From the sequence record NC_031928.1: 64,000 nt of DNA; one strand, given 5' to 3'. The notes below the pieces were generated by a model, which had not been told where the DNA came from, searched no databases, and was given only the letters and a program-made list of their open reading frames with translations. Shown in pieces: positions 15,044 to 37,055 of this stretch; within the stretch, counting starts at the first letter, position 1, and each line of letters begins with the position of its first letter. This DNA comes from Escherichia phage WG01. The position numbers and the translations under genes were made by a program.

Positions 15044-15081
15044 GTTGATAGGTCTATAGTATCATTTCTACTGGAGATGTA
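15044..15081 (-). promoter_or_regulatory. early promoter cassette
   Basis: GTTTAC -35 and TACTATAGACC -10 region with dyad CAGTAG/CTACTG. Confidence 0.55.
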
Positions 15082-27813: not shown

Positions 27814-28263
27814 TCAAAAGAGTGAATCCAAAACCTTAAACATCGACGGGCCCATGACATATTCCCATTGTGGCCGTTTAATCAAGGCAAAAGCATCGAA
27901 TTCAGGAATAGTACGACCATCAGGGAACGTATGGTAAGCCGTACATTTGCAATCCTTGAACTGCTCGTGTTCCACAGGAACTGTATATAAGAACAGATGT
28001 AGATTCTTATTGCTTGAATATTTGAACTCACCTAGGTCTTTCAGGAACGCAGGATCGTATGCTGTGAATCCAATCTCTTCTTCGGTTTCGCGCATTGCCG
28101 CTTGAATGGGCTCTTCGCCTGGTTCGACATGACCCTTAGGAATGTCCCATTTATGACGCATATTCTCTGGATTACGAGAGCCTGTTACACGGCCCATGAC
28201 CAGTTCTTTATCAACGGTCATGAATAAAATACCGGCAGATAGTTCTTTCACTTTCTTACTCAT
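27814..28263 (-). CDS. nudE: Nudix hydrolase NudE
   Basis: ATG at 28263 gives 150 aa; Nudix box GHVEPGEEPIQAAMRETEEEIG; follows e as in T4. Confidence 0.85.
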   Translation of the reverse strand: MSKKVKELSAGILFMTVDKELVMGRVTGSRNPENMRHKWDIPKGHVEPGEEPIQAAMRETEEEIGFTAYDPAFLKDLGEFKYSSNKNLHLFLYTVPVEHEQFKDCKCTAYHTFPDGRTIPEFDAFALIKRPQWEYVMGPSMFKVLDSLF

Positions 28264-28492
28264 CGTCTCGTTCCCATGATTGTTTAAAAATATCTTGCAT
28301 AATAATTTGAAGTCTATTTTCTGATGATGGACTTTCACTATCAGACACTTGAAGCATATAGTCACCAATAGGACAGAACATATCCATATCGCTTTCTAAG
28401 TCTTCTTTAATTTTCTCTTCTGATGTTCCGGTATCATAGGAATACAGATAAGAATCACATGACTCAGATTTAATATAAATTGCAATGCTCAT
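28256..28492 (-). CDS. hypothetical acidic protein (78 aa)
   Basis: ATG with AAGGAA RBS lying in the conserved junction motif. Confidence 0.35.
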   Translation of the reverse strand: MSIAIYIKSESCDSYLYSYDTGTSEEKIKEDLESDMDMFCPIGDYMLQVSDSESPSSENRLQIIMQDIFKQSWERDDE

Positions 28493-29076
28493 TTACGGCA
28501 TTCCTTAATAAAAGAGTTTAATGTATTTTTCTTAGTGATATCGTCATATACCTTTTTAACTTTAGAAATACGAAAAGGTACTTCGATAACAGAGGTCCAT
28601 AAAAATGATGCGATAAGACCTAAGATAGCAGCAGACATCGCTGAAGCGAATACACAAATAGGCAGGTCATTATCTGTTGTCAGGAAAAACCCTAGGAGTG
28701 GGAAAAATAATATACCCATCCAAACATAGAATCTAGAACTCACCAATTTGTCGTATTCATCACTCCAGGCACGGAAGCCGTATTTTTTGCTATAACAAAT
28801 CAATGGGTCTGGAGTCTGTTCTTTATATGGTTCCGCTTGCCAGCCGTTTACAATATAGCCCATTTTATATTCCTCAATTAAAAGCTGTTTCATTTCGGCA
28901 GTACAACCTGACCAATCTATTGTACTGGCTGAAATTCCTTCATCACAGTCATCGATATTTCGCCAGGACTTTTTAATAATCATATTCTCACCACTTGGGA
29001 TAATAATTCCAGCATTTTCCGACCGACGGATGAAGTTTGTATCAATACCCATACAACCAGGTTCATAAAGGGCCAT
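28489..29076 (-). CDS. membrane protein with conserved C-terminal FIKEC tail (195 aa)
   Basis: ATG start; two C-terminal TM helices; tail ...NSFIKECRK. Confidence 0.45.
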   Translation of the reverse strand: MALYEPGCMGIDTNFIRRSENAGIIIPSGENMIIKKSWRNIDDCDEGISASTIDWSGCTAEMKQLLIEEYKMGYIVNGWQAEPYKEQTPDPLICYSKKYGFRAWSDEYDKLVSSRFYVWMGILFFPLLGFFLTTDNDLPICVFASAMSAAILGLIASFLWTSVIEVPFRISKVKKVYDDITKKNTLNSFIKECRK

Positions 29077-29762
29077 TACCAGCCCTCCATAGGGAATTCC
29101 AGATATACTTGAGCATTAACGCGGATTTCATTTGTAATCTTTTTAACACGGTCTGTATTACGAGACACACGACCAAACCAGCGCCAACCGTTACTTACTG
29201 CACGAGAACCTGTATGCCATGTCTGCCAATCAAACTGGAGCAACGTGCGGTCAGGAGCATCCCACTTAGTTAATTCATTAGACTCAATTTTTTCCAGAAC
29301 TTCTTTATGCCACTGGCGATAGATAAGTTCGCCTTCAGGAATCTGACTGAACTGGGCAGTTCCGGTTGCAAAATGAGTAGGACACACATCAGCGTTAACA
29401 AGACCAAGAATATGTTCAGAATGGTATCGAGGATTATCATAATCAGGTTGCCCTGCGGTAATAAAGTGTTGACCCACCGGAATATCCGGGCGTGGTACAT
29501 CATCATGGTGGAAGCCTGGAATTGCAGGGTACCAGCCGGGCATTAACATGTGTACACGGGAATCAAATACGCATTCAACGGCTTTCCACTCATCAGGGAG
29601 ATTAGTAATAAAGCTACGAGTAATAGGACCACCATTTTGTGCAGCAAAATTCAAATCACAGTTAAAGAACATAGGCTCGTTTTTAATATCATCATTAGAA
29701 ATATGACCTGCAAAACCACCTACTGCACGAGCTTTAGAATTAAAAGTTTTCGGACCGTTCAT
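29076..29762 (-). CDS. hypothetical protein (228 aa), His/Asp-rich
   Basis: ATG with GAGGA RBS; HHDD...H cluster. Confidence 0.5.
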   Translation of the reverse strand: MNGPKTFNSKARAVGGFAGHISNDDIKNEPMFFNCDLNFAAQNGGPITRSFITNLPDEWKAVECVFDSRVHMLMPGWYPAIPGFHHDDVPRPDIPVGQHFITAGQPDYDNPRYHSEHILGLVNADVCPTHFATGTAQFSQIPEGELIYRQWHKEVLEKIESNELTKWDAPDRTLLQFDWQTWHTGSRAVSNGWRWFGRVSRNTDRVKKITNEIRVNAQVYLEFPMEGW

Positions 29763-29776
29763 AATATTTTCCTCAC

Positions 29777-29989
29777 TTACTTTTTGTTGAAAAAGTACAT
29801 TTTACCTTTAGGAGATAAGGATACACGAAGTGCGTTACCAATACCAACTGAACATTTAACCAGGTCAGCAGATTTCAATTCACCAAATGCTTGACGAAGG
29901 TCACCATCACGAGTGTTAACCATCAGGCATTTAGCACCAGCTGCACGAACTTCGTTTAACATGTTGATTGCTTGGTTAGAAAGTTTCAT
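29777..29989 (-). CDS. hypothetical protein (70 aa)
   Basis: ATG at 29989 with GGAGA RBS; upstream ORF-track codons lie in the promoter. Confidence 0.4.
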   Translation of the reverse strand: MKLSNQAINMLNEVRAAGAKCLMVNTRDGDLRQAFGELKSADLVKCSVGIGNALRVSLSPKGKMYFFNKK

Positions 29990-30015
29990 TTTATTCTCCA
30001 TTTCACTCTGTTGTT

Positions 30016-30056
30016 TTGATAGGTCTATAGTATCACACCTATAGACCTTGTACACT
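30016..30056 (-). promoter_or_regulatory. promoter cassette variant (GTGTACA -35)
   Basis: dyad GGTCTATAG/CTATAGACC around TACTATAGACC. Confidence 0.5.
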
Positions 30057-30067
30057 GTTTTGTGCAA

Positions 30068-31027
30068 TTATTTTTCGAAAGGACGAATTAAATGTTGGTT
30101 ACGCTTAAACCGTTCAATGTAGTCGTTTTCACCTAAAGTCTTGTACATATTAACCACAGCTTGGTAGTTTTCCCATGCATAAGTGCGGAACCAACCTGAA
30201 GTGATTGAGGTGCACACTTTCTCAAGGGCCATATAGAAACTTAATGATGGTGAAATATTGAAGTCATTAGGAACCTGTGAACGTTCTAGTGCCAGGACAC
30301 AAGTTTCTTCATACACACCAGCCAGTTTAATAGCTTCAGGCAAAGCCTCGAACTTCTCACGAGAGGTCATGACTTCAGAACCTTCCTTCATATAAAAGGT
30401 ATATGCAGGGCGCCCTGCCAATGCCACTGCTTCATGGATAGAGTCGTGGTCTAGGGTATAAATGGTATCATTAAAGAACGATGATTTGTTTACATCCAAT
30501 TTAGGGTGGGAATAGCTCAACGTTTCTTTTTGACGTTGCAACATAATTTCCTGGAGTTCTTCGTTAAGGGTGATACCTTTATTACGAAGGTATTTGATGT
30601 GGGACATGGTTTTCAAGAAGAACGGATTATTCTTCAAGAAACGATGGGAGGTTTTGATAGCCAGACAGATATCAGGGGTTGCCCAATAGAAACCTGTAAG
30701 ACGGTCCTTTTTAATATGATTTTCAGCATATTTCAGAAGACGATAACTTGAGGTGAAATCTTCATCTTGGAGCTCACCGGTGATTTCTCGTACGTTAGTC
30801 AGAGCACGAACGATATATGCTTCAAAATAGGTTTCTTTACCGTTGTACATGCATTTAAAAGCCTGGACATCAGGATTATCCACAGGAACATGGGCACCAA
30901 ACATCCGAGCTTTAAAGTGATTCCATGAGCCTTGGTCGGCAATGAAATCCCAATCAGAATTTTCGATATGCTTACTTTCAATCAGACCAGCGTGGTGCAG
31001 TGCACGAGAACCAATAACTAACATCAT
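30068..31027 (-). CDS. hypothetical protein (319 aa)
   Basis: ATG at 31027 with GAGGA RBS; N-terminal VIGSRALHH...SDWDF is only weakly nucleotidyltransferase-like. Confidence 0.45.
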   Translation of the reverse strand: MMLVIGSRALHHAGLIESKHIENSDWDFIADQGSWNHFKARMFGAHVPVDNPDVQAFKCMYNGKETYFEAYIVRALTNVREITGELQDEDFTSSYRLLKYAENHIKKDRLTGFYWATPDICLAIKTSHRFLKNNPFFLKTMSHIKYLRNKGITLNEELQEIMLQRQKETLSYSHPKLDVNKSSFFNDTIYTLDHDSIHEAVALAGRPAYTFYMKEGSEVMTSREKFEALPEAIKLAGVYEETCVLALERSQVPNDFNISPSLSFYMALEKVCTSITSGWFRTYAWENYQAVVNMYKTLGENDYIERFKRNQHLIRPFEK

Positions 31028-31046
31028 AATATTTTCCTCAGTAAAC

Positions 31047-31286
31047 TTAAATTTCAGCGACGTAATCGTTATGCAATTCCCACATATCATCAGAATTATT
31101 CTTAATGATAGGAATTATCTCATTAGAGATTTCTTCAGCATAAGGGTCATTGATACAGTGGGCATCTTCAAAACGAACACCGTAATCAGACTTCTTATAA
31201 GAGAAGCCATAAATCTTTTTAAACTTGGCGCGAGTAATGCGTACCGGTTCATTAGACTTATCGGACATCGGAGCGTAATACCACAT
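31047..31286 (-). CDS. hypothetical protein (79 aa)
   Basis: ATG ORF downstream of a promoter cassette. Confidence 0.4.
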   Translation of the reverse strand: MWYYAPMSDKSNEPVRITRAKFKKIYGFSYKKSDYGVRFEDAHCINDPYAEEISNEIIPIIKNNSDDMWELHNDYVAEI

Positions 31287-31305
31287 ATGTTCTCCTCATG
31301 TTTGT

Positions 31306-31350
31306 GTAGGGTAATAGTAACATGATTTTCTAGAGTTGTACATCACTTCT
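31306..31350 (-). promoter_or_regulatory. promoter cassette variant
   Basis: TGTACA -35-like and TACTAT -10-like with dyad GGGTAATAG. Confidence 0.4.
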
Positions 31351-31680
31351 GCAATATTCTAAAAATAATTTATCATTGTCTACTGTATCCCAACGACGCC
31401 AAGACGGGTTCCAGACCAAAGCGTTGTCACCACAATCATTGAGCTTAAAATGGTCGTAGTACATAGCTATGTGTCTAGTCTCGTCACCAGAGAACCCCAG
31501 TATAGGCTCACCGCGGGTGTGATACATATGATGGTGCATTGAGAGGTCGCATTTGTAAAACATCTCACGTTTACCACGAACGAACAAGAAGGCCTGTCCA
31601 TTCATATAGAATTCTTTATTTGTTTTCAAAAGATATTTGAATACTGAATCTTTATGCATAAGTCCTCCTACCACATCCAT
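31330..31680 (-). CDS. hypothetical protein (116 aa)
   Basis: ATG ORF; His/Cys-rich. Confidence 0.4.
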   Translation of the reverse strand: MDVVGGLMHKDSVFKYLLKTNKEFYMNGQAFLFVRGKREMFYKCDLSMHHHMYHTRGEPILGFSGDETRHIAMYYDHFKLNDCGDNALVWNPSWRRWDTVDNDKLFLEYCRSDVQL

Positions 31681-31689
31681 GTGGTTAAA

Positions 31690-31917
31690 TTATTTTCCTA
31701 ACGAAATACGAGTAGGTTTTTTACCGAAATAGTCTTCATAAGAACCATCTAAACGACCTGCTTTAGACCGACAATATGAATCGTACTTTTTGTAATAAGT
31801 CATCTCAGTATTATAACGCGGGTGTCTATCAGCCATAATAATACTTAACGGCCAACCTTTGGCATAATCGCGAAGACCATTTATTTTACGAATGTATCTT
31901 TTCTTTAATTTTAGCAT
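31690..31917 (-). CDS. hypothetical basic protein (75 aa)
   Basis: ATG overlapping upstream stop. Confidence 0.4.
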   Translation of the reverse strand: MLKLKKRYIRKINGLRDYAKGWPLSIIMADRHPRYNTEMTYYKKYDSYCRSKAGRLDGSYEDYFGKKPTRISLGK

Positions 31918-32135
31918 GAGCTCGGATACCAGATTTTACCATCGGCCTGAGCAACGAAGGTGCGACCAGCTTCTTCGCCATAACACGAGCTATTCAGCCA
32001 ATCTTCGAGACGAACTTCACCGTCATAATCGTCGAGCTCAACACCAAAACTTTGAGCAGAAGCCATATCTTTTACTTTCTTATACAGTGCAGCCAGTTCA
32101 AGTGCAGCTTTTTCTAATTCATTAATATCAGACAT
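31911..32135 (-). CDS. small acidic protein, paralog family member (C-terminal W..SSC)
   Basis: 74 aa; ATG with AAGGTGA RBS; ends WYPSSC. Confidence 0.45.
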   Translation of the reverse strand: MSDINELEKAALELAALYKKVKDMASAQSFGVELDDYDGEVRLEDWLNSSCYGEEAGRTFVAQADGKIWYPSSC

Positions 32136-32146
32136 TTTTTATCACC

Positions 32147-32359
32147 TTAGCAAGACATAGAGGATGTAAACCAGAAACCTTCACCTTCCGGAATACCGTA
32201 GTCATCACGGACCCATTCGTAATCATCATATTCCGGGTTCTTTGGAGAAATGTATTCTCCACGACCAGAAACACGGAACTCTTCACCCGTTTCGTCAGCC
32301 ACAGACTGGCCTTTACGTACTAATTCACGGATTTGGTTTTCAATTTCATCAATAGTCAT
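32147..32359 (-). CDS. small acidic protein, paralog family member
   Basis: 70 aa; ATG with AAGGA RBS; ends FWFTSSMSC. Confidence 0.45.
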   Translation of the reverse strand: MTIDEIENQIRELVRKGQSVADETGEEFRVSGRGEYISPKNPEYDDYEWVRDDYGIPEGEGFWFTSSMSC

Positions 32360-32368
32360 TTTATTTCC

Positions 32369-32650
32369 TTAACATTCAGAAGAAGAGGACACCCAACCAC
32401 CATTTTCTAGGCTGGTAGTGTAATCATGTTGGTTTACAATAGCGTACTGAGCTTCACCGTATTCTTCCCAGTGGGCAAGGTCGGCTTTCAAGGCGCCAGG
32501 AGAATAATAGTCACCGCCCATACCGCGAGCAGGGTATATATTAAAATGAGTCTCATATTTGTTTGCAATTTCCTCGGCACGACGAATAGCTTTATGGATA
32601 TCATTTACTGCTTCAGCCAATTCTTTATTTTTATGGTAATCATTCATCAT
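32369..32650 (-). CDS. small acidic protein, paralog family member
   Basis: 93 aa; ends GGWVSSSSEC. Confidence 0.45.
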   Translation of the reverse strand: MMNDYHKNKELAEAVNDIHKAIRRAEEIANKYETHFNIYPARGMGGDYYSPGALKADLAHWEEYGEAQYAIVNQHDYTTSLENGGWVSSSSEC

Positions 32651-32659
32651 AAAATTTCC

Positions 32660-32950
32660 TTAGCACATTGCCGAAGAGGAGATCCAAGCACCAACTGTAA
32701 CGACGCCATTTTCAACTTCACCACCGTTGTTTTCAATTTCATCTTTAAACCATTGGGAGCATTCATAACCGACAGGATAATATGTACGGCCTGAACCATA
32801 ATCACCAGTACCGAATTGGATACCATACTTATCGGCAATAGCTTCACATTCATGTTCGATGGTATTCACTTTATTCAGAAGAGCATAGATAGCCTTTTCT
32901 GCAGATTTCTCGTCATTGTGTTCCGGGATTTCAATTTCAATTTTATTCAT
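32660..32950 (-). CDS. small acidic protein, paralog family member
   Basis: 96 aa; ends GAWISSSAMC; shares IA.KY..F...YY core with 32369..32650. Confidence 0.45.
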   Translation of the reverse strand: MNKIEIEIPEHNDEKSAEKAIYALLNKVNTIEHECEAIADKYGIQFGTGDYGSGRTYYPVGYECSQWFKDEIENNGGEVENGVVTVGAWISSSAMC

Positions 32951-33300
32951 GATTTACATTCCTTAATAAAGGTTTCAAGGTCATTACGTTTAGTTTGTTT
33001 TACATACTCATTATAATTAGCCATAGCTAAAGCATATCTCTTTTTACGTGGCTTGTTTATTTTATTAGTTTGGGCAATATCAAAGACCCATGGGATAAAA
33101 AATCCTATTAAAGCCGGAACCCAAATCCACGCGAGGCTCATATCTTCAAACGGATGGCGAGGCATACCATTAATAATCCCACCGACAAGAAATCCAATTA
33201 TCCCTGCAGTCATACTAGTAGCAATGCCGAGGAATAATGAAATAGAGATATCGTAATCTGCTAATGCGTAACCAGGGTCGGTTTTACTAGGCTTATGCAT
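32947..33300 (-). CDS. membrane protein with conserved C-terminal FIKEC tail
   Basis: ATG at 33300; two TM helices; tail ...LETFIKECKS. Confidence 0.4.
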   Translation of the reverse strand: MHKPSKTDPGYALADYDISISLFLGIATSMTAGIIGFLVGGIINGMPRHPFEDMSLAWIWVPALIGFFIPWVFDIAQTNKINKPRKKRYALAMANYNEYVKQTKRNDLETFIKECKS

Positions 33301-33829
33301 TTTGAACCTCTTTAGCGTATTCGCGACATTCAGCAATAAAACGATCAAGCTTACGGTGTTGTTTACGACTTTCTAATGTGTACTCATTAGCCAAAATAAT
33401 AAGCTCATCTTTATCGTAATTTTTAATATCAGAGTAAGATGGGCGACGGTCAACCATTCCAAATACATCACCATTTTCTAAAGCTACATAGCATACTAAA
33501 TGGTAATCATCGTCTGCCATATTAAGAAGCACACAATCAGCGCTCTCGTTTAAAGAATATACTGAATAACGTAGTCCAGCGAATTCCACTCGTTGAATAG
33601 CCAGATTTACGTCAATAATTTCCAAAGCATCTTCAAAAGAAAGGTCTTCAGCTAAAGCAAAAATAAAAGGTAATTTGGTAGTATCGCCACGGCTAGATGT
33701 TCTGCTTAAGAAATCGTTTGAATAGCCTAGGTCTTGGCGAATTCTATAAAGAACTGAATTGGTTTCATGGGAAAGACCACTATTTTTAAACCAATCAATA
33801 TTTGATATCAGGTCGTCATATAAACTCAT
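33293..33829 (-). CDS. hypothetical protein (178 aa)
   Basis: ATG with GGAGGAGAGGAG RBS; C-terminal DRFIAECRE resembles the FIKEC tail. Confidence 0.45.
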   Translation of the reverse strand: MSLYDDLISNIDWFKNSGLSHETNSVLYRIRQDLGYSNDFLSRTSSRGDTTKLPFIFALAEDLSFEDALEIIDVNLAIQRVEFAGLRYSVYSLNESADCVLLNMADDDYHLVCYVALENGDVFGMVDRRPSYSDIKNYDKDELIILANEYTLESRKQHRKLDRFIAECREYAKEVQNA

Positions 33830-33877
33830 AATATTCTCCTCTCCTCCAAATAGGGAGACCGAAGTCTCCCGGTAACA

Positions 33878-34471
33878 TTACTTAAGTGAATTAATGTAGT
33901 CTTCGATATCAGCAGAAGTCGTATCCATTCCAACTTGCGGGCCTTTAAACGTTTCTACGCGCATCAGGGTGTCTTCGATATCAATCTTGGTCAGTGCAGC
34001 AATTTCAACAACATCGTCGGCAGTAGCAATACCAAGGGCAGCCATATTACGAGTTTCACGGATGTACTCGAGCTTAACAGCCAGTTCCTGACGAGAGTCA
34101 TCAAGTTCCTTAACCTTCAGTTTAATTTCATTACGCATTTCGATATAATCATCGGCTTTCTTACGAAGCTGGGTAGCTGTACGACGATAAAGGAGGCCAA
34201 GTTTAGCATGTACCTGGACATCAGCGCCTTCGGCAATCAGTTTACGAATTTCACGTTCTTTAGAAGCAGCGAGCTGGTCTTTTTCATTAGCCAATGCACG
34301 AATACGTTTTTCTTCATTCACAGACTTAACATGAGCAGTCTGGAGTTCAGTGATTTTATCAATCAGAGTAGAAGCAGCTTTGGTGTATTGGTCTTCGATT
34401 GACAGGTTCTGAGCCATTGCGGTGCCCAGTTTAGAACGAATGAATTCAACGATTTTCTTTAAAGTGTTCAT
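33878..34471 (-). CDS. coiled-coil protein (197 aa)
   Basis: ATG at 34471 with GAAGGA RBS; upstream ORF-track codons lie in the promoter. Confidence 0.45.
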
Positions 34472-34500
34472 AGTATTTCCTTCAGTTGGTTGATATTTTG

Positions 34501-34545
34501 TAATCCATGAGGACATTATACCCTGTCCTCTGAGGTTTGTAAACA
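34501..34545 (-). promoter_or_regulatory. T4-type early promoter with stem-loop
   Basis: minus strand GTTTACA, 17 nt, TATAAT; dyad GAGGACA/TGTCCTC. Confidence 0.6.
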
Positions 34546-34547
34546 TT

Positions 34548-34946
34548 TTATTTCATTTTTGCGAGGCAGATTTCATTGGCTTCCCATTGAGCTTGCTTAA
34601 TAATAGCTTTGGATACAGGAGCCCTTTGGCCATAAGTTTTTGACGTTGAGAGAACAATACATTTGTTTGCTTCATTATGCCAGCCCCATGATTTTTCGCC
34701 ATGAGTACCTTTAACTACAGCTGACACCTCAACAGAGCAACCACCATCAGAAATCTTGGTTTCGACAACCCATTCATTTCTCTCAGCAGCTTCAATTTCT
34801 AATCTAGTTTTTTCTTCATACATCGCGGCCCAATCAGTTTTTGCCAAGTTGAAAGTAAGAGCTTTCTCTAATTCTTTGGCATATTTTTGTTGTTCAGGTG
34901 TTAATGAATTATACAACTCTTGCATTTCTTTATCTTCGATATTCAT
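34548..34946 (-). CDS. hypothetical protein (132 aa)
   Basis: ATG with GAGGAG RBS. Confidence 0.45.
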
Positions 34947-35004
34947 TATGTTCTCCTCAAATTATGGGCTCATAATATCTTAATCATGAGCCCATGTAAA
35001 CGTT

Positions 35005-35268
35005 TTATTTCATATTATTGAAATAATTTTCTGCATCAAAATCATTACCATGGTAAACTTTGGTAGACGATTTGGCGTAACCTTCAGCTGAGAACATATT
35101 AATCACAACTTTAATTGTATACCACTGTCCATCTTCATTACCCATTACTGCATAGGTTTCATACACCGGGTGTTCAGGACCGATAACCTTAATATCGTTA
35201 ACTGTGGCACCAAATTCTTCCGGAACACATTTCATAAAGAAATTAAACACTTCACCATAATTATCCAT
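35005..35268 (-). CDS. hypothetical protein (87 aa)
   Basis: ORF track start is GTG in the promoter; ATG at 35268 with AAGGAG RBS. Confidence 0.4.
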   Translation of the reverse strand: MDNYGEVFNFFMKCVPEEFGATVNDIKVIGPEHPVYETYAVMGNEDGQWYTIKVVINMFSAEGYAKSSTKVYHGNDFDAENYFNNMK

Positions 35269-35291
35269 TTTACTCTCCTTCACTCTGTTGT

Positions 35292-35332
35292 TTTGATAGG
35301 TCTATAGTATCATGTTCTACGAAAGAGTAAAC
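35292..35332 (-). promoter_or_regulatory. early promoter cassette
   Basis: GTTTAC -35, TACTATAGACC -10 region. Confidence 0.55.
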
Positions 35333-35355
35333 ATCTTTTTTAAACCTTTTAGAAA

Positions 35356-35384
35356 CAAAAAAGGCCCAACCTTTCGGAAGGGCC
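35356..35384 (-). terminator. rho-independent terminator
   Basis: GGCCC-TTCCGAAAGG-TTGGGC hairpin followed by T7 on the minus strand. Confidence 0.55.
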
Positions 35385-35389
35385 TAGAA

Positions 35390-35944
35390 TCAGTTCTTGT
35401 AGAACCGGAATGGGTTTATGTGGAAGGCTAACATAGCCTTAGGGATTTTACGAGACAAAAGACTCTTAAGTTTCCAACCACAGTATACACGAAGGTAAAA
35501 GGTAATCCCACCTACTTTAAGATACGGAACTGAAGCAAAGACTCCCCATGCTTCGTCATTCCACATCCATAACCATCCATGATGAGCTTTATCAGGAGAA
35601 CCGGATTCAACGTCAGGATTACCACGATAATGGAATTCTGAGCTACAATCGCGTCCAAGTTTATGGTAAGCAAAGTTATAAGCTTTATTTCGCCATAGCC
35701 AAGCTACCCTCTGGAGATAAACACCGCCCGGCATTTTCCTGATTTTAGCCCAACGTTTAATATGACCTTTGTCACCGTCAATTGGATTATCGTATGTCAT
35801 CATCCAATCAAAGCCATAAGGCAATTTACCGGTCTTTTTATTATGGAAAGGAACTACAAAAGGCGCAAGGATAACGGCCAGAACCATAGAGATGAAATCC
35901 AGTGGAACCAACAGAACCCAACTCAAATATTTTAAAAGTTTCAT
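35390..35944 (-). CDS. membrane protein (184 aa)
   Basis: ORF track start is TTG; ATG at 35944; N-terminal TM helices; Trp-rich. Confidence 0.45.
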   Translation of the reverse strand: MKLLKYLSWVLLVPLDFISMVLAVILAPFVVPFHNKKTGKLPYGFDWMMTYDNPIDGDKGHIKRWAKIRKMPGGVYLQRVAWLWRNKAYNFAYHKLGRDCSSEFHYRGNPDVESGSPDKAHHGWLWMWNDEAWGVFASVPYLKVGGITFYLRVYCGWKLKSLLSRKIPKAMLAFHINPFRFYKN

Positions 35945-35988
35945 ATATTTCTCTAAGTTAACCAAAAAAGCCCCAGACGGGGCTTTCG

Positions 35989-36453
35989 TTATTTGATTTG
36001 TTTAGCAGACCAGATACGGTCTTTGATGATTTTCTGAATATCTTCAACATACTCTAAGTCGTGAGCATGTGGATTATCTTTGAAGCTATGTGCTCGTGCC
36101 AGTTTCTGGCCTTCTGTTTTGATTACTAAAAGCTCTTTAAGAATTGCTTCATACTTAGAAATAATTCCTTTGGCGATATTTTTTTCTTGAGCGGCTTTAG
36201 GGTCCGCTTTTGACGCAGGTGCTTTACCTGTAGCTTTCTGGAACAATTCACCTGATGCAGCTAGGCTTTTAAAAACTCGGCTAACAGTATTGGCATTAGT
36301 AAAACCTTCGGCTTTAAAATCTTTAATAAAACGGAAACGTTCTTCATCAGAGGCGTCTTTGTAAGAATATTTACCTGCTTGAATTGCTGCAATCGCAGCG
36401 GCTTTTACATCTGAACTAGATTGTTCAGTCAAAAATTCATTGTAAGTTTTCAT
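35989..36453 (-). CDS. internal-protein-like packaged protein (CTS-tagged, 154 aa)
   Basis: N-terminus [10 protein letters not shown]; late promoter ~27 nt upstream. Confidence 0.6.
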   Translation of the reverse strand: MKTYNEFLTEQSSSDVKAAAIAAIQAGKYSYKDASDEERFRFIKDFKAEGFTNANTVSRVFKSLAASGELFQKATGKAPASKADPKAAQEKNIAKGIISKYEAILKELLVIKTEGQKLARAHSFKDNPHAHDLEYVEDIQKIIKDRIWSAKQIK

Positions 36454-36479: not shown

Positions 36480-36487
36480 TATTTATA
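36480..36487 (-). promoter_or_regulatory. late promoter TATAAATA
   Basis: exact TATAAATA on the minus strand ~27 nt upstream of the ATG at 36453. Confidence 0.55.
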
Positions 36488-36488
36488 C

Positions 36489-36518
36489 AAAAAAAGCCCA
36501 ACCTTTCGGAAGGGCCTT
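36489..36518 (-). terminator. rho-independent terminator ending the tRNA/stable-RNA transcript
   Basis: same hairpin as 35356..35384 (GNRA loop) followed by T7. Confidence 0.55.
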
Positions 36519-36559
36519 TAACCTAGGGTAACCTTGTCGGGGTTCCACCTGCTAGGCAA

Positions 36560-36898
36560 GTGTTTGTACGAAACGCCGGGATTCGAACCCGGTTATTAAG
36601 TAGTTGACGCCACTCAATATTTTTAAAAGGCCATATCTCGACCATATCCGAACGTTCCGTCAAAAACGCTACTCGGCTTACGGCAAAGATATTTCCTCGA
36701 ATCGATAATTCGGTGCGCCGTTTCTGCTGTGATGTAAGGGGACGTTAACAGATCGTAAAGATTTGTTAATGCCAGTCCTTACTCAGGGAACATCAGTCCG
36801 ACGACTTACCGGTAGCGACCCGGTTTCTTGTTTGTTGCGCCGGTGAATGCTGGTAATCAGTCTTCATACGACGGCTTGACTATATAATAGTCTTCATT
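36560..36898 (-). ncRNA. candidate stable RNA(s) downstream of the tRNAs
   Basis: ~340 bp with no ORF of 60 aa or more; minus-strand T-arm-like hairpin CCGGG-TTCGAAT-CCCGG at ~36575-36595; no full cloverleaf found by eye. Confidence 0.25.
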
Positions 36899-36973
36899 TG
36901 GTATCCCGCCCTGGGATCGAACCAGGACCGCAAACTTAGAAGGATCGTATGCTATCCATTACACCAGCGGGAC
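36899..36973 (-). tRNA. tRNA-Arg (anticodon TCT)
   Basis: minus strand cloverleaf with anticodon loop CTTCTAA, T-loop GGTTCGATCC and encoded CCA. Confidence 0.8.
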
Positions 36974-36978
36974 GTAGT

Positions 36979-37055
36979 TGGTGACCCAGACCAGATTTGA
37001 ACTGGTAACCTTTCCCTTATGAGGGGACTGCTGCTAACCATTGAGCTACAGGGCC
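36979..37055 (-). tRNA. tRNA with CAT anticodon (Met or lysidine-type Ile)
   Basis: minus strand GGCCCTGTAGCTCAATGGTTAGCAGCAGTCCCCTCATAAGGGAAAGG...GTTCAAATC...CCA. Confidence 0.7.

Follow-up and report, generated by a model that had tools for sequence, protein, structure and literature searches.

The gene block between nudE and the tRNA genes of Escherichia phage WG01: a probable hyperplastic region with a nucleotidyltransferase gene and its small-protein neighbours

Between nudE and the tRNA genes of Escherichia phage WG01 (NC_031928.1) lies a block of minus-strand genes whose nature poses a question: is it a site of strain-specific host-interaction genes, for which an earlier reading of the letters and their open reading frames (the sequence-only reading) had considered it the most likely place, or an ordinary variable region of a T4-type genome? 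The window analysed here is a stretch of 64,000 nucleotides of this genome, given 5' to 3' on one strand, and all coordinates of WG01 refer to it. Most probably, the block is the hyperplastic region between e and the tRNA genes of Dhakavirus, a string of accessory cassettes reshuffled by recombination at PeSL-type elements. As such it is of low novelty: it is an ordinary example of a type of variable region already known, and GenBank already contains nearly the same sequence. The part worth following is a gene pair within it, which encodes a predicted nucleotidyltransferase (NTase) and small proteins with a Trp-Ser-Ser-Cys tail and is kept across T4-like phages, ~350-kb contigs (presumably jumbo phages) and other distant phages. 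Several 'hypothetical' genes of T4-like phages thus appear to encode conserved enzymes and not throw-away strain genes.

Extent, relatives and gene content of the block

The ORF (open reading frame) listing and the inspection of start sites give 19 minus-strand ORFs at 28256-36453, in which neighbours overlap or are separated by at most 121 nucleotides (nt); coordinate 28264 is the base right after the nudE start codon. The description as about 8 kb of small and medium minus-strand genes between nudE and the tRNAs therefore stands. The 8.19-kb block matches 379 phage records, 40 of which cover at least 80% of it at 90-99% identity. Its closest sequence matches are Dhakavirus genomes (JS98-like T4-type coliphages) at 91-99% identity; E33 is 99% identical across 28837-36453, and QL01, LHE83 and UGJNEcP3 are at 95-97%. 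In the annotated genomes of JS98 and E33, denV, internal-head-protein genes, e and nudE are followed by a series of hypothetical genes and then by the tRNA genes, and the gene order from nudE to tRNA-Arg/Met agrees with JS98, E33, RB69 and T4. The tRNA genes of the window, at 36899-37055, are tRNA-Arg(tct) and tRNA-Met(cat), as in RB69, and a search against Rfam found these two tRNAs and nothing else. JS98 has an additional tRNA-Asn between tRNA-Arg and tRNA-Met, which 36899-37055 of WG01 lacks. By position the block had been equated with the variable e.x region of T4, and it does occupy the site of T4 e.2-e.8. Its genes are listed below, with lengths in amino acids (aa) and isoelectric points (pI).

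28256-28492, minus strand: g1, 78-aa acidic protein (pI 4.1) of the RB69 ORF130c family, 62% identical to RB69 ORF130c; phrog_2900 (E 3e-37)
28489-29076, minus strand: g2, membrane protein of the e.2 family, ORF of 195 aa with two hydrophobic segments and the C-terminus ...NSFIKECRK
29076-29762, minus strand: g3, 228-aa protein with 10 His and 15 Asp, Fe(II)/2-oxoglutarate oxygenase-like, RB69 ORF132c family
29777-29989, minus strand: g4, 70-aa basic protein (pI 9.9), product of a variable cassette gene; phrog_6001
30068-31027, minus strand: g5, 319-aa predicted Pol-beta-fold NTase; Pfam DUF7277 and DUF7275
31047-31286, minus strand: g6, 79-aa protein of the RB69 ORF135c family, 43% identical to RB69; phrog_3723
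31330-31659, minus strand: g7, 109-aa protein; phrog_9796
31690-31917, minus strand: g8, 75-aa basic protein (pI 10); phrog_7065
31911-32950, minus strand: g9-g12, four tandem paralogs of 74, 70, 93 and 96 aa (pI 4.2-5.0), at 31911-32135, 32147-32359, 32369-32650 and 32660-32950; phrog_899 for all
32947-33300, minus strand: g13, 117-aa membrane protein, e.3 homolog with two hydrophobic segments and the C-terminus ...ETFIKECKS; phrog_2330
33293-33829, minus strand: g14, 178-aa acidic protein at the e.4/e.5 position; phrog_8788
33878-34471, minus strand: g15, e.6 homolog, 197 aa, Lys/Glu-rich, no Cys or Trp; phrog_1203
34548-34946, minus strand: g16, 132-aa protein that occupies the place of e.7 without being related to T4 e.7; the gene is a cassette with a promoter repeat on either side; phrog_8232
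35005-35268, minus strand: g17, e.8 homolog, 87 aa; phrog_2678
35390-35944, minus strand: g18, 184-aa basic protein with a hydrophobic segment at residues 3-21; Pfam DUF7338 (E 4e-63), phrog_2143
35989-36453, minus strand: g19, 154-aa internal-head-protein candidate with a capsid-targeting N-terminus; phrog_2280

Every one of the 19 genes has a PHROG assignment, and searches of Pfam and PHROGs with all 19 proteins and of NCBIfam and PADLOC with ten each returned only families of unknown function. PDB sequence and profile searches were empty for g3, g5, g14, g15, g16 and g18, and the profile of the paralogs matched designed helical proteins only. No anti-phage defence model of PADLOC was matched, a library that models host defence systems and says little on phage counter-defence genes. 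The features named in the sequence-only reading could all be assigned to genes: its membrane proteins are g2 and g13 (two hydrophobic segments each) and g18 (one), the 228-aa His/Asp-rich protein is g3, the 319-aa protein is g5, the four-paralog array is g9-g12, all in phrog_899 and with a common C-terminal W..SS..C, and the capsid-tagged gene is g19 at 35989-36453. For its coiled-coil protein the candidate is g15 (e.6), to which a single weak Pfam coiled-coil match (E 0.05) points.

Comparison with T4 and RB69

The T4 region holds seven genes, e.2-e.8, over 3.0 kb at the same site between e/nudE and the tRNA genes, compared with 19 genes over 8.2 kb in WG01. When the 19 proteins were compared with the T4 region by tblastn, only e.2 (g2, 30%), e.3 (g13, 23%, E 1e-8), e.6 (g15, 74%) and e.8 (g17, 80%) were found; T4 e.4 and e.7 have no homolog in WG01. 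The remaining 15 genes had no match in the T4 region, apart from g14, which shares with T4 and RB69 e.5 only the C-terminal ...RFIAECREY... motif. The block is thus not conserved gene for gene with T4 e.1-e.8, and the statement that its genes could not be placed against T4 applies to these 15, whereas the other four have now been placed.

Eleven of the 19 genes match the region of RB69 (Mosigvirus) in the same order. The pairs include ORF130c with g1, e.2 with g2, ORF132c with g3 (89%), ORF134c with g5 (74%), ORF135c with g6, ORF137c with g11, ORF139c plus ORF138c with a split g12, e.3 with g13 (30%), e.6 with g15 (73%) and e.8 with g17 (80%). The order g1, e.2, g3, g5, g6, two paralogs, e.3, e.6, e.8 is therefore kept in RB69, which carries ORF133c, e.4, e.5, frd.3 and ORF145c/146c where WG01 carries g4, g7, g8, g14, g16 and g18. 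The splitting of the paralog g12 gene into ORF139c and ORF138c is a feature of the RB69 record (locus L004, 9735-10041).

Gene content varies at promoter and terminator cassettes

Among Dhakavirus loci, g4, g6-g8, g16, g18 and g19 are present or absent, and the alignment breakpoints fall at 28512/28837 (inside e.2), 29775/30065-30072 (g4), 31043/31906 (g6-g8), 34559/34995 (g16) and 35344-35960 (g18). The central part of g2 (28513-28836) is a mosaic between relatives, three loci (L008, L009, L012) lack g4, and g6, g7 and g8 are variably present in relatives, g6 being missing from some Dhakavirus loci. A further locus (L011) lacks g16. The breakpoints here, 34559/34995, lie inside the repeat D14, and the missing segment falls exactly between the two copies of this 22-nt sequence, each of which makes up the upstream edge of an early promoter together with its first bases (-35 end). 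Many relatives carry a different gene in place of g19, coverage ending at 35961. The pair g18-g19 is bracketed by the terminator repeat D6, and in T4 this terminator and the rnaC/rnaD genes directly adjoin e.8. The predicted regulatory elements in and beside the block are the following.

29991-30047, minus strand: promoter/stem-loop/leader cassette upstream of g4 (GTGTAC ... TACTAT) with the 10-bp stem AGGTCTATAG/CTATAGACCT
34515-34544, minus strand: early promoter of e.6 (GTTTACA-N17-TATAAT), 11 of 12 consensus positions
34972-35001, minus strand: early promoter of g16 with the embedded stem GGGCTCAT/ATGAGCCC
35304-35332, minus strand: early promoter of e.8 (GTTTAC-N17-TACTAT), with an A/T-rich tract before it
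35355-35385, minus strand: intrinsic terminator, copy 1 (repeat D6), downstream of g18; hairpin of -16 kcal/mol, then U6
35967-35986, minus strand: terminator-like hairpin (-14.5 kcal/mol) with a U-run, between g19 and g18
36480-36487, minus strand: putative late promoter TATAAATA upstream of g19, 27 nt before it
36487-36517, minus strand: intrinsic terminator, copy 2, which ends the tRNA/rnaC/rnaD unit just outside the block; hairpin of -15 kcal/mol, then a U-run

The pattern GTTTAC-N17/18-TAYWAT has 15 matches in the window, all on the minus (coding) strand, compared with 0.23 expected by chance. Three such canonical early promoters lie within the block, upstream of e.6, g16 and e.8, and a GTGTAC variant lies upstream of g4 at 30019-30047. 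The 45-nt leader of the g4 cassette recurs upstream of e.8 at 35268-35312 (direct repeat D3, 89% identical). For the late-promoter motif TATAAATA, the 7 matches in the window are not above chance, and the call at 36480-36487 accordingly rests on its position. Weighing against these assignments, a generic promoter and terminator scan taken alone was not above chance. At least four promoter cassettes and two identical terminators had been noted in the block; we find three canonical promoters, one variant and one putative late promoter, and the terminator copies at 35355-35385 and 36487-36517 share 30 of 31 positions but are not identical. The punctuation of the block by promoter/terminator cassettes was recognised correctly, and the gene-content breakpoints in relatives fall at these cassettes.

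In T4-type hyperplastic regions, PeSL cassettes combine a promoter with a stem-loop, and recombination between them shuffles accessory genes (Arbiol et al., 2010, PMC2839356; Comeau et al., 2014, PMC4122927). Judged from sequence and breakpoints, the intergenic cassettes of WG01 match this published organisation: core genes flank variable content, the cassettes combine promoter, stem-loop and Shine-Dalgarno sequence, and the indels are bounded by cassettes. As in other T4-type hyperplastic regions, the sigma-70-type early promoters have an A/T-rich upstream tract, stem-loops are embedded in the promoters or adjoin them, and a Shine-Dalgarno sequence and ATG stand at the 3' end. The accessory genes would presumably be non-essential and mostly under early promoters of this type, each cassette being equipped with a promoter, a stem-loop and a Shine-Dalgarno sequence of its own. 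Genes would then be inserted, deleted or exchanged when near-identical PeSL-type cassettes recombine homologously, and the presence/absence differences among relatives would be the outcome. The terminator-bracketed insert would bring in a DUF7338 membrane protein (g18) together with a late-expressed internal head protein (g19).

The cassette consensus GTTTAC ... GATACTAT is specific to the lineage of WG01. The 15 early-promoter sites span 7270-39385 of the window, with examples at 15056, 19652, 23571, 26172 and 39357. Within several near-identical cassettes elsewhere in the window, the spacer of the promoter can pair with the Shine-Dalgarno leader downstream of it (CTCCTGTAG ... CTACAGGAG), so that read-through transcripts from upstream could hide the ribosome-binding site.

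We consider it unlikely that the block is instead an island specific to this strain, in which WG01 has newly acquired host-interaction (counter-defence) genes. The site is indeed a known variable region, the central part of e.2 and the genes g4, g6-g8, g16 and g19 do differ between close relatives, and T4 internal head proteins, to which g19 bears a resemblance discussed below, are a known anti-restriction class. However, the sharing of at least 80% of the block by 40 records, the near-identity of E33 over most of it, the 11 of 19 genes in RB69 order and the widespread g3 and g5 families show that the block is not strain-specific, and the claim of strain-specific genes is thus not supported. 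Moreover, in phages of Aeromonas, Serratia, Erwinia and Klebsiella g3 still has counterparts at 68% identity or more, which speaks for a conserved role as an enzyme and against an arms-race gene, and PADLOC, Pfam and NCBIfam gave no link to defence or counter-defence among the proteins searched.

A predicted nucleotidyltransferase gene accompanied by genes for W-SS-C proteins

The predicted models of g3 and g5 are confident, and their fold matches agree with invariant residues of catalytic type. On its model, g5 is a nucleotidyltransferase of the Pol-beta superfamily, with the fold, the hG[GS] ... D-x-D motif and the third carboxylate of that superfamily, and the closest solved structures are the toxins MenT1, MenT3 and MenT4. 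Its family comprises 1920 database relatives over many phage genera. Upstream of g5, the paralogs g9-g12 end in ...GKIWYPSSC, ...GFWFTSSMSC, ...GGWVSSSSEC and ...GAWISSSAMC, respectively. Identity to g9 is 22-32% for g10-g12. An N-terminal helix and an acidic stretch are common to the paralogs, which often have a (G)xYGxGxTYYP loop as well, and all end in the invariant W-x-x-S-S-(x-x)-C, with Cys as the final residue. A HMMER scan of 1.84 billion cluster representatives gave 135 clusters of this family, almost all of 70-136 aa, and 123 of the 135 end in Cys. A 769-aa protein with 12 repeats (P0280) was rejected as a member, being a repeat-driven false positive.

Linkage was read from the NTase side in a sample of 80 viral loci that hold a g5 relative, down to 42% identity, from T4-like phages, Aeromonas phages, the ~350-kb contigs and metagenomic contigs. 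An iterated hidden Markov model (HMM) of the paralog family detected it in 72 of the 80 loci, where its members lie, with few exceptions, directly upstream of the NTase gene in the same orientation; there is one NTase gene per locus, accompanied by up to six family members. A regular expression for the tail matched 195 of 7404 ORFs, 186 of which lie on the NTase strand within 2.5 kb upstream, and at least one such ORF is present in 73 of the 80 loci. Grouped at 60% identity, the NTases fall into 18 clusters, and the W-SS-C pairing is kept in 17 of them. The distance from the nearest paralog to the start of the NTase ORF reaches 1.6 kb. Clustering of the neighbouring ORFs revealed no other family that accompanies the NTase across lineages; a g1-like protein recurs within one large-contig lineage, and relatives of g1 adjoin the NTase module in the jumbo-phage loci L047, L049, L051-L053 and L059.

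Two variants of the tail proteins were seen. In one subfamily (g9, 31911-32135; L023, 7406-7627) the motif occurs twice, as an internal DW(L/N)xSSCYGE and as the terminal WxxSSC. Longer relatives of 139-144 aa (loci L043-L046 and L055/L057/L060/L078) end in ...AWCSSSMIC, ...AWCSSSMEC or ...GWISSSICW, and in four of these loci such a protein is the sole family member, ~6 kb from the NTase gene and on the opposite strand. As to the source of the enzyme, a bacterial origin was dropped as a candidate, 185,579 species genomes having given 5 matches, all in metagenome-assembled contigs.

Our literature search found no paper on DUF7275, DUF7277 or DUF7338, and nothing relevant on a C-terminal cysteine together with a nucleotidyltransferase, on MenT in phages or on the NTase/W-SS-C pairing. 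The gene pair is therefore undescribed in the literature searched, while it is linked across very distant phages.

Possible roles of the NTase and the tail proteins

We tentatively favour a model in which g5 works together with g9-g12, the small acidic proteins ending in W-x-x-S-S-(x-x)-C-COOH, and the invariant tail would be both the enzyme's recognition site and its target, the serines being nucleotidylylated, for example. In this way a single enzyme could act on several proteins, be they substrates or adaptors. This model is preferred because one enzyme is found with several paralogs and because conservation is concentrated in a short tail that bears hydroxyl and thiol groups. MntA-HepT and GlnD/GlnE are Pol-beta NTases that nucleotidylylate a partner protein, the known cases modifying tyrosine. 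The pair in WG01 resembles them in that an enzyme of the same superfamily is genetically coupled to a small protein with an invariant hydroxyl-bearing site, whereas the invariant residues of g9-g12 are Trp, Ser-Ser and the terminal Cys, so that the likeness should be taken as a resemblance only. A short invariant tail beside a dedicated enzyme could reveal a new protein modification during infection.

Several observations weigh against the assignment of g5 or against its joint role with the tail proteins. g5 matched no Pfam catalytic family and no PDB sequence, either as a single sequence or as a profile. In the WG01 window the unrelated genes g6-g8 separate the paralog array from g5, and much of the linkage sample consists of related T4-like genomes, in which gene order may be kept by shared ancestry alone. 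In addition, distant NTase homologs that keep GS...DxD have no W-SS-C neighbour in Streptomyces phage Circinus (L090), Gordonia phage Norvs (L091) and roseophage DSS3_VP1 (L092). These genes have a different small overlapping ORF downstream and adjoin Pnk, Rnl2, phosphoesterase or tRNA genes (for DSS3_VP1, the neighbourhood at 1001-4627 of L092). The small proteins therefore cannot be the sole or ancestral substrate.

A more far-reaching form of the tail-modification model, which must be regarded as doubtful, is that the DUF7277-DUF7275 NTase and the tail proteins constitute a phage-specific protein or peptide modification system, in which the tail is covalently modified and the paralogs are processed into effectors acting on the host. 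Two routes may be envisaged, namely nucleotidylylation of the serines, or activation and elimination of a serine, upon which the terminal cysteine would attack and close a ring. If true, lytic phages would possess a new maturation chemistry that has no relation to the known enzymes of ribosomally synthesized and post-translationally modified peptides (RiPPs) or of toxin-antitoxin systems. Among the 19 block proteins, no Pfam domain of RiPP/lanthipeptide maturases (LanB, LanM, LanKC, LanL, radical S-adenosylmethionine enzymes, YcaO) or of a leader protease/exporter was found, and the weak match to Nif11 in 1 of 38 paralog-family members (E 0.003) is within chance for 38 queries.

Alternatively, the W-SS-C proteins could be antitoxin-like inhibitors or regulators of a MenT-like NTase that acts on RNA, e.g., on tRNA 3' ends, which would make the pair a phage version of MenA/MenT or AbiEi/AbiEii with the antitoxin gene upstream of the toxin gene. 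We think this improbable, although it accounts for the nearest solved structures of g5 being MenT1, MenT3 and MenT4, for the small acidic proteins being encoded upstream on the same strand, and for the Pnk, Rnl2, phosphoesterase or tRNA clusters and the other small overlapping ORF beside distant NTases that lack W-SS-C neighbours. It is also in line with MenT toxins acting on tRNA acceptor stems and being restrained by diverse antitoxins, as described in two papers (PMC10435456, PMC11375011). However, up to six paralogs per enzyme are unusual for one-to-one toxin-antitoxin pairs, and the restriction of strong conservation to a short C-terminal tail would suit a site of recognition or modification better than a fold used for binding. 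Likewise, DUF1814, the Pfam family of AbiEii, gave no match in any of 42 g5-family members, even at E up to 5. A link between NTase and tRNA genes was dropped, tRNA genes being close by in just 5 of 40 distant loci. g5 further differs from MenT and AbiEii in its lack of sequence membership, ~144 of its 319 residues aligning, in its large and highly conserved extra helical domain (DUF7275), in its occurrence in lytic phages and in its several partner paralogs with a fixed C-terminal tail.

It is very unlikely that array and NTase have no functional connection and stand side by side only because gene order is inherited in a shared accessory region: many of the 80 loci are T4-like with conserved synteny, g6-g8 intervene in WG01 and the distance between paralog and NTase can be large, but the pairing persists where all other neighbours have changed (~350-kb contigs, NTases of ~42% identity, metagenomic lineages), in nearly all NTase clusters and with the great majority of motif ORFs directly upstream.

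A probable oxygenase encoded by g3

On the basis of its model, g3 is probably an Fe(II)/2-oxoglutarate oxygenase. Its family has 1322 database relatives over many phage genera, the best 120 of which are all at least 68% identical, and one UniRef name in the family is 'Phytanoyl-CoA dioxygenase family protein'. The AlphaFold2 (AF2) model has a predicted local distance difference test score (pLDDT) of 85. Among the best 50 Foldseek matches in PDB, almost all are 2-oxoglutarate oxygenases of the PhyH type or close relatives, mostly at a probability >0.9, including proline hydroxylase H11, GriE, EctD and EvdO2. The residues invariant in 37 homologs are H85 H86 D87 D88, H183 and R194 R198 S200, of which the first four lie where the predicted strand 82-85 ends, while H183 and the last group are within the predicted strands 182-185 and 192-201. 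With PhyH-type oxygenases, g3 shares a predicted double-stranded beta-helix, and these residues may correspond to the H-x-D at a strand end, the distal His and the R-x-S in the next strand of those enzymes. Two points speak against this assignment, in which g3 differs from these enzymes: the fold matches are weak (E ~2e-3 or worse, TM-score 0.23-0.44), and no sequence match was found in Pfam, NCBIfam or PDB. The protein gp038 of roseophage DSS3_VP1 could be distantly related to g3 (BLASTP E 0.05; distal His and R-x-S in register).

g19 and other candidate internal head proteins

The N-terminus of g19 has the capsid-targeting sequence of internal head proteins, ending in a prohead-protease site (L/I-x-E), and matches phrog_7857 'internal virion protein'. 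The protein may be made late, packaged and injected with the DNA. It shares with T4 IPI, IPII and IPIII the N-terminal MKTYxEF(I/L)xE capsid-targeting sequence, a putative late promoter and a hypervariable locus, whereas its mature part has no similarity to these proteins. Seven genes of the window, all on the minus strand, start with MK[ST]YxEF[IL]xE (25060, 26225, 26904, 35989, 38454, 38823 and 39397), and WG01 therefore has a large, dispersed set of internal-head-protein candidates.

Start sites, a shared C-terminal motif and neighbouring sequences

For two genes the start site had to be considered. The conserved part of g2 begins at M32 (28983), phrog_2203 'membrane protein' aligning from residue 32, and a Shine-Dalgarno sequence is present at both candidate starts. 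For g15, phrog_1203 aligns from M16 of a longer ORF; the promoter at 34515-34544 lies inside this longer ORF, and the start giving 197 aa is therefore favoured.

A C-terminal (L/I)xxF(I/V)xEC(R/K) motif is common to g2, g13, g14, T4/RB69 e.2, e.3 and e.5, and RB69 ORF133c, and e.4 has a variant form of it; in the window it stands at the C-terminus of exactly three genes, g2, g13 and g14. The e.2-, e.3- and e.5-like proteins may thus form a family of small membrane and soluble proteins joined by this motif. The T4 e.2 gene (annotated as 102 aa; L003, 3482-3961) looks like a broken copy, its similarity to g2 running past two stop codons to the C-terminal ...NNFITECRK.

By accession order, none of the hits of a toxicity screen of Mosigvirus AV110 (bioRxiv 10.64898/2026.09.14.751387) map to the block, and the paper on the 5-hydroxycytosine pathway of RB69 concerns genes other than those of the block.

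Finally, the non-coding stretch between g19 and tRNA-Arg (36485-36834, minus strand), which matches no Rfam family and whose rnaC-equivalent part (36565-36708) is absent from JS98, is 90% identical to the rnaC and rnaD region of T4 and 93% identical to that of RB69, an identity exceeding that of the flanking protein genes.

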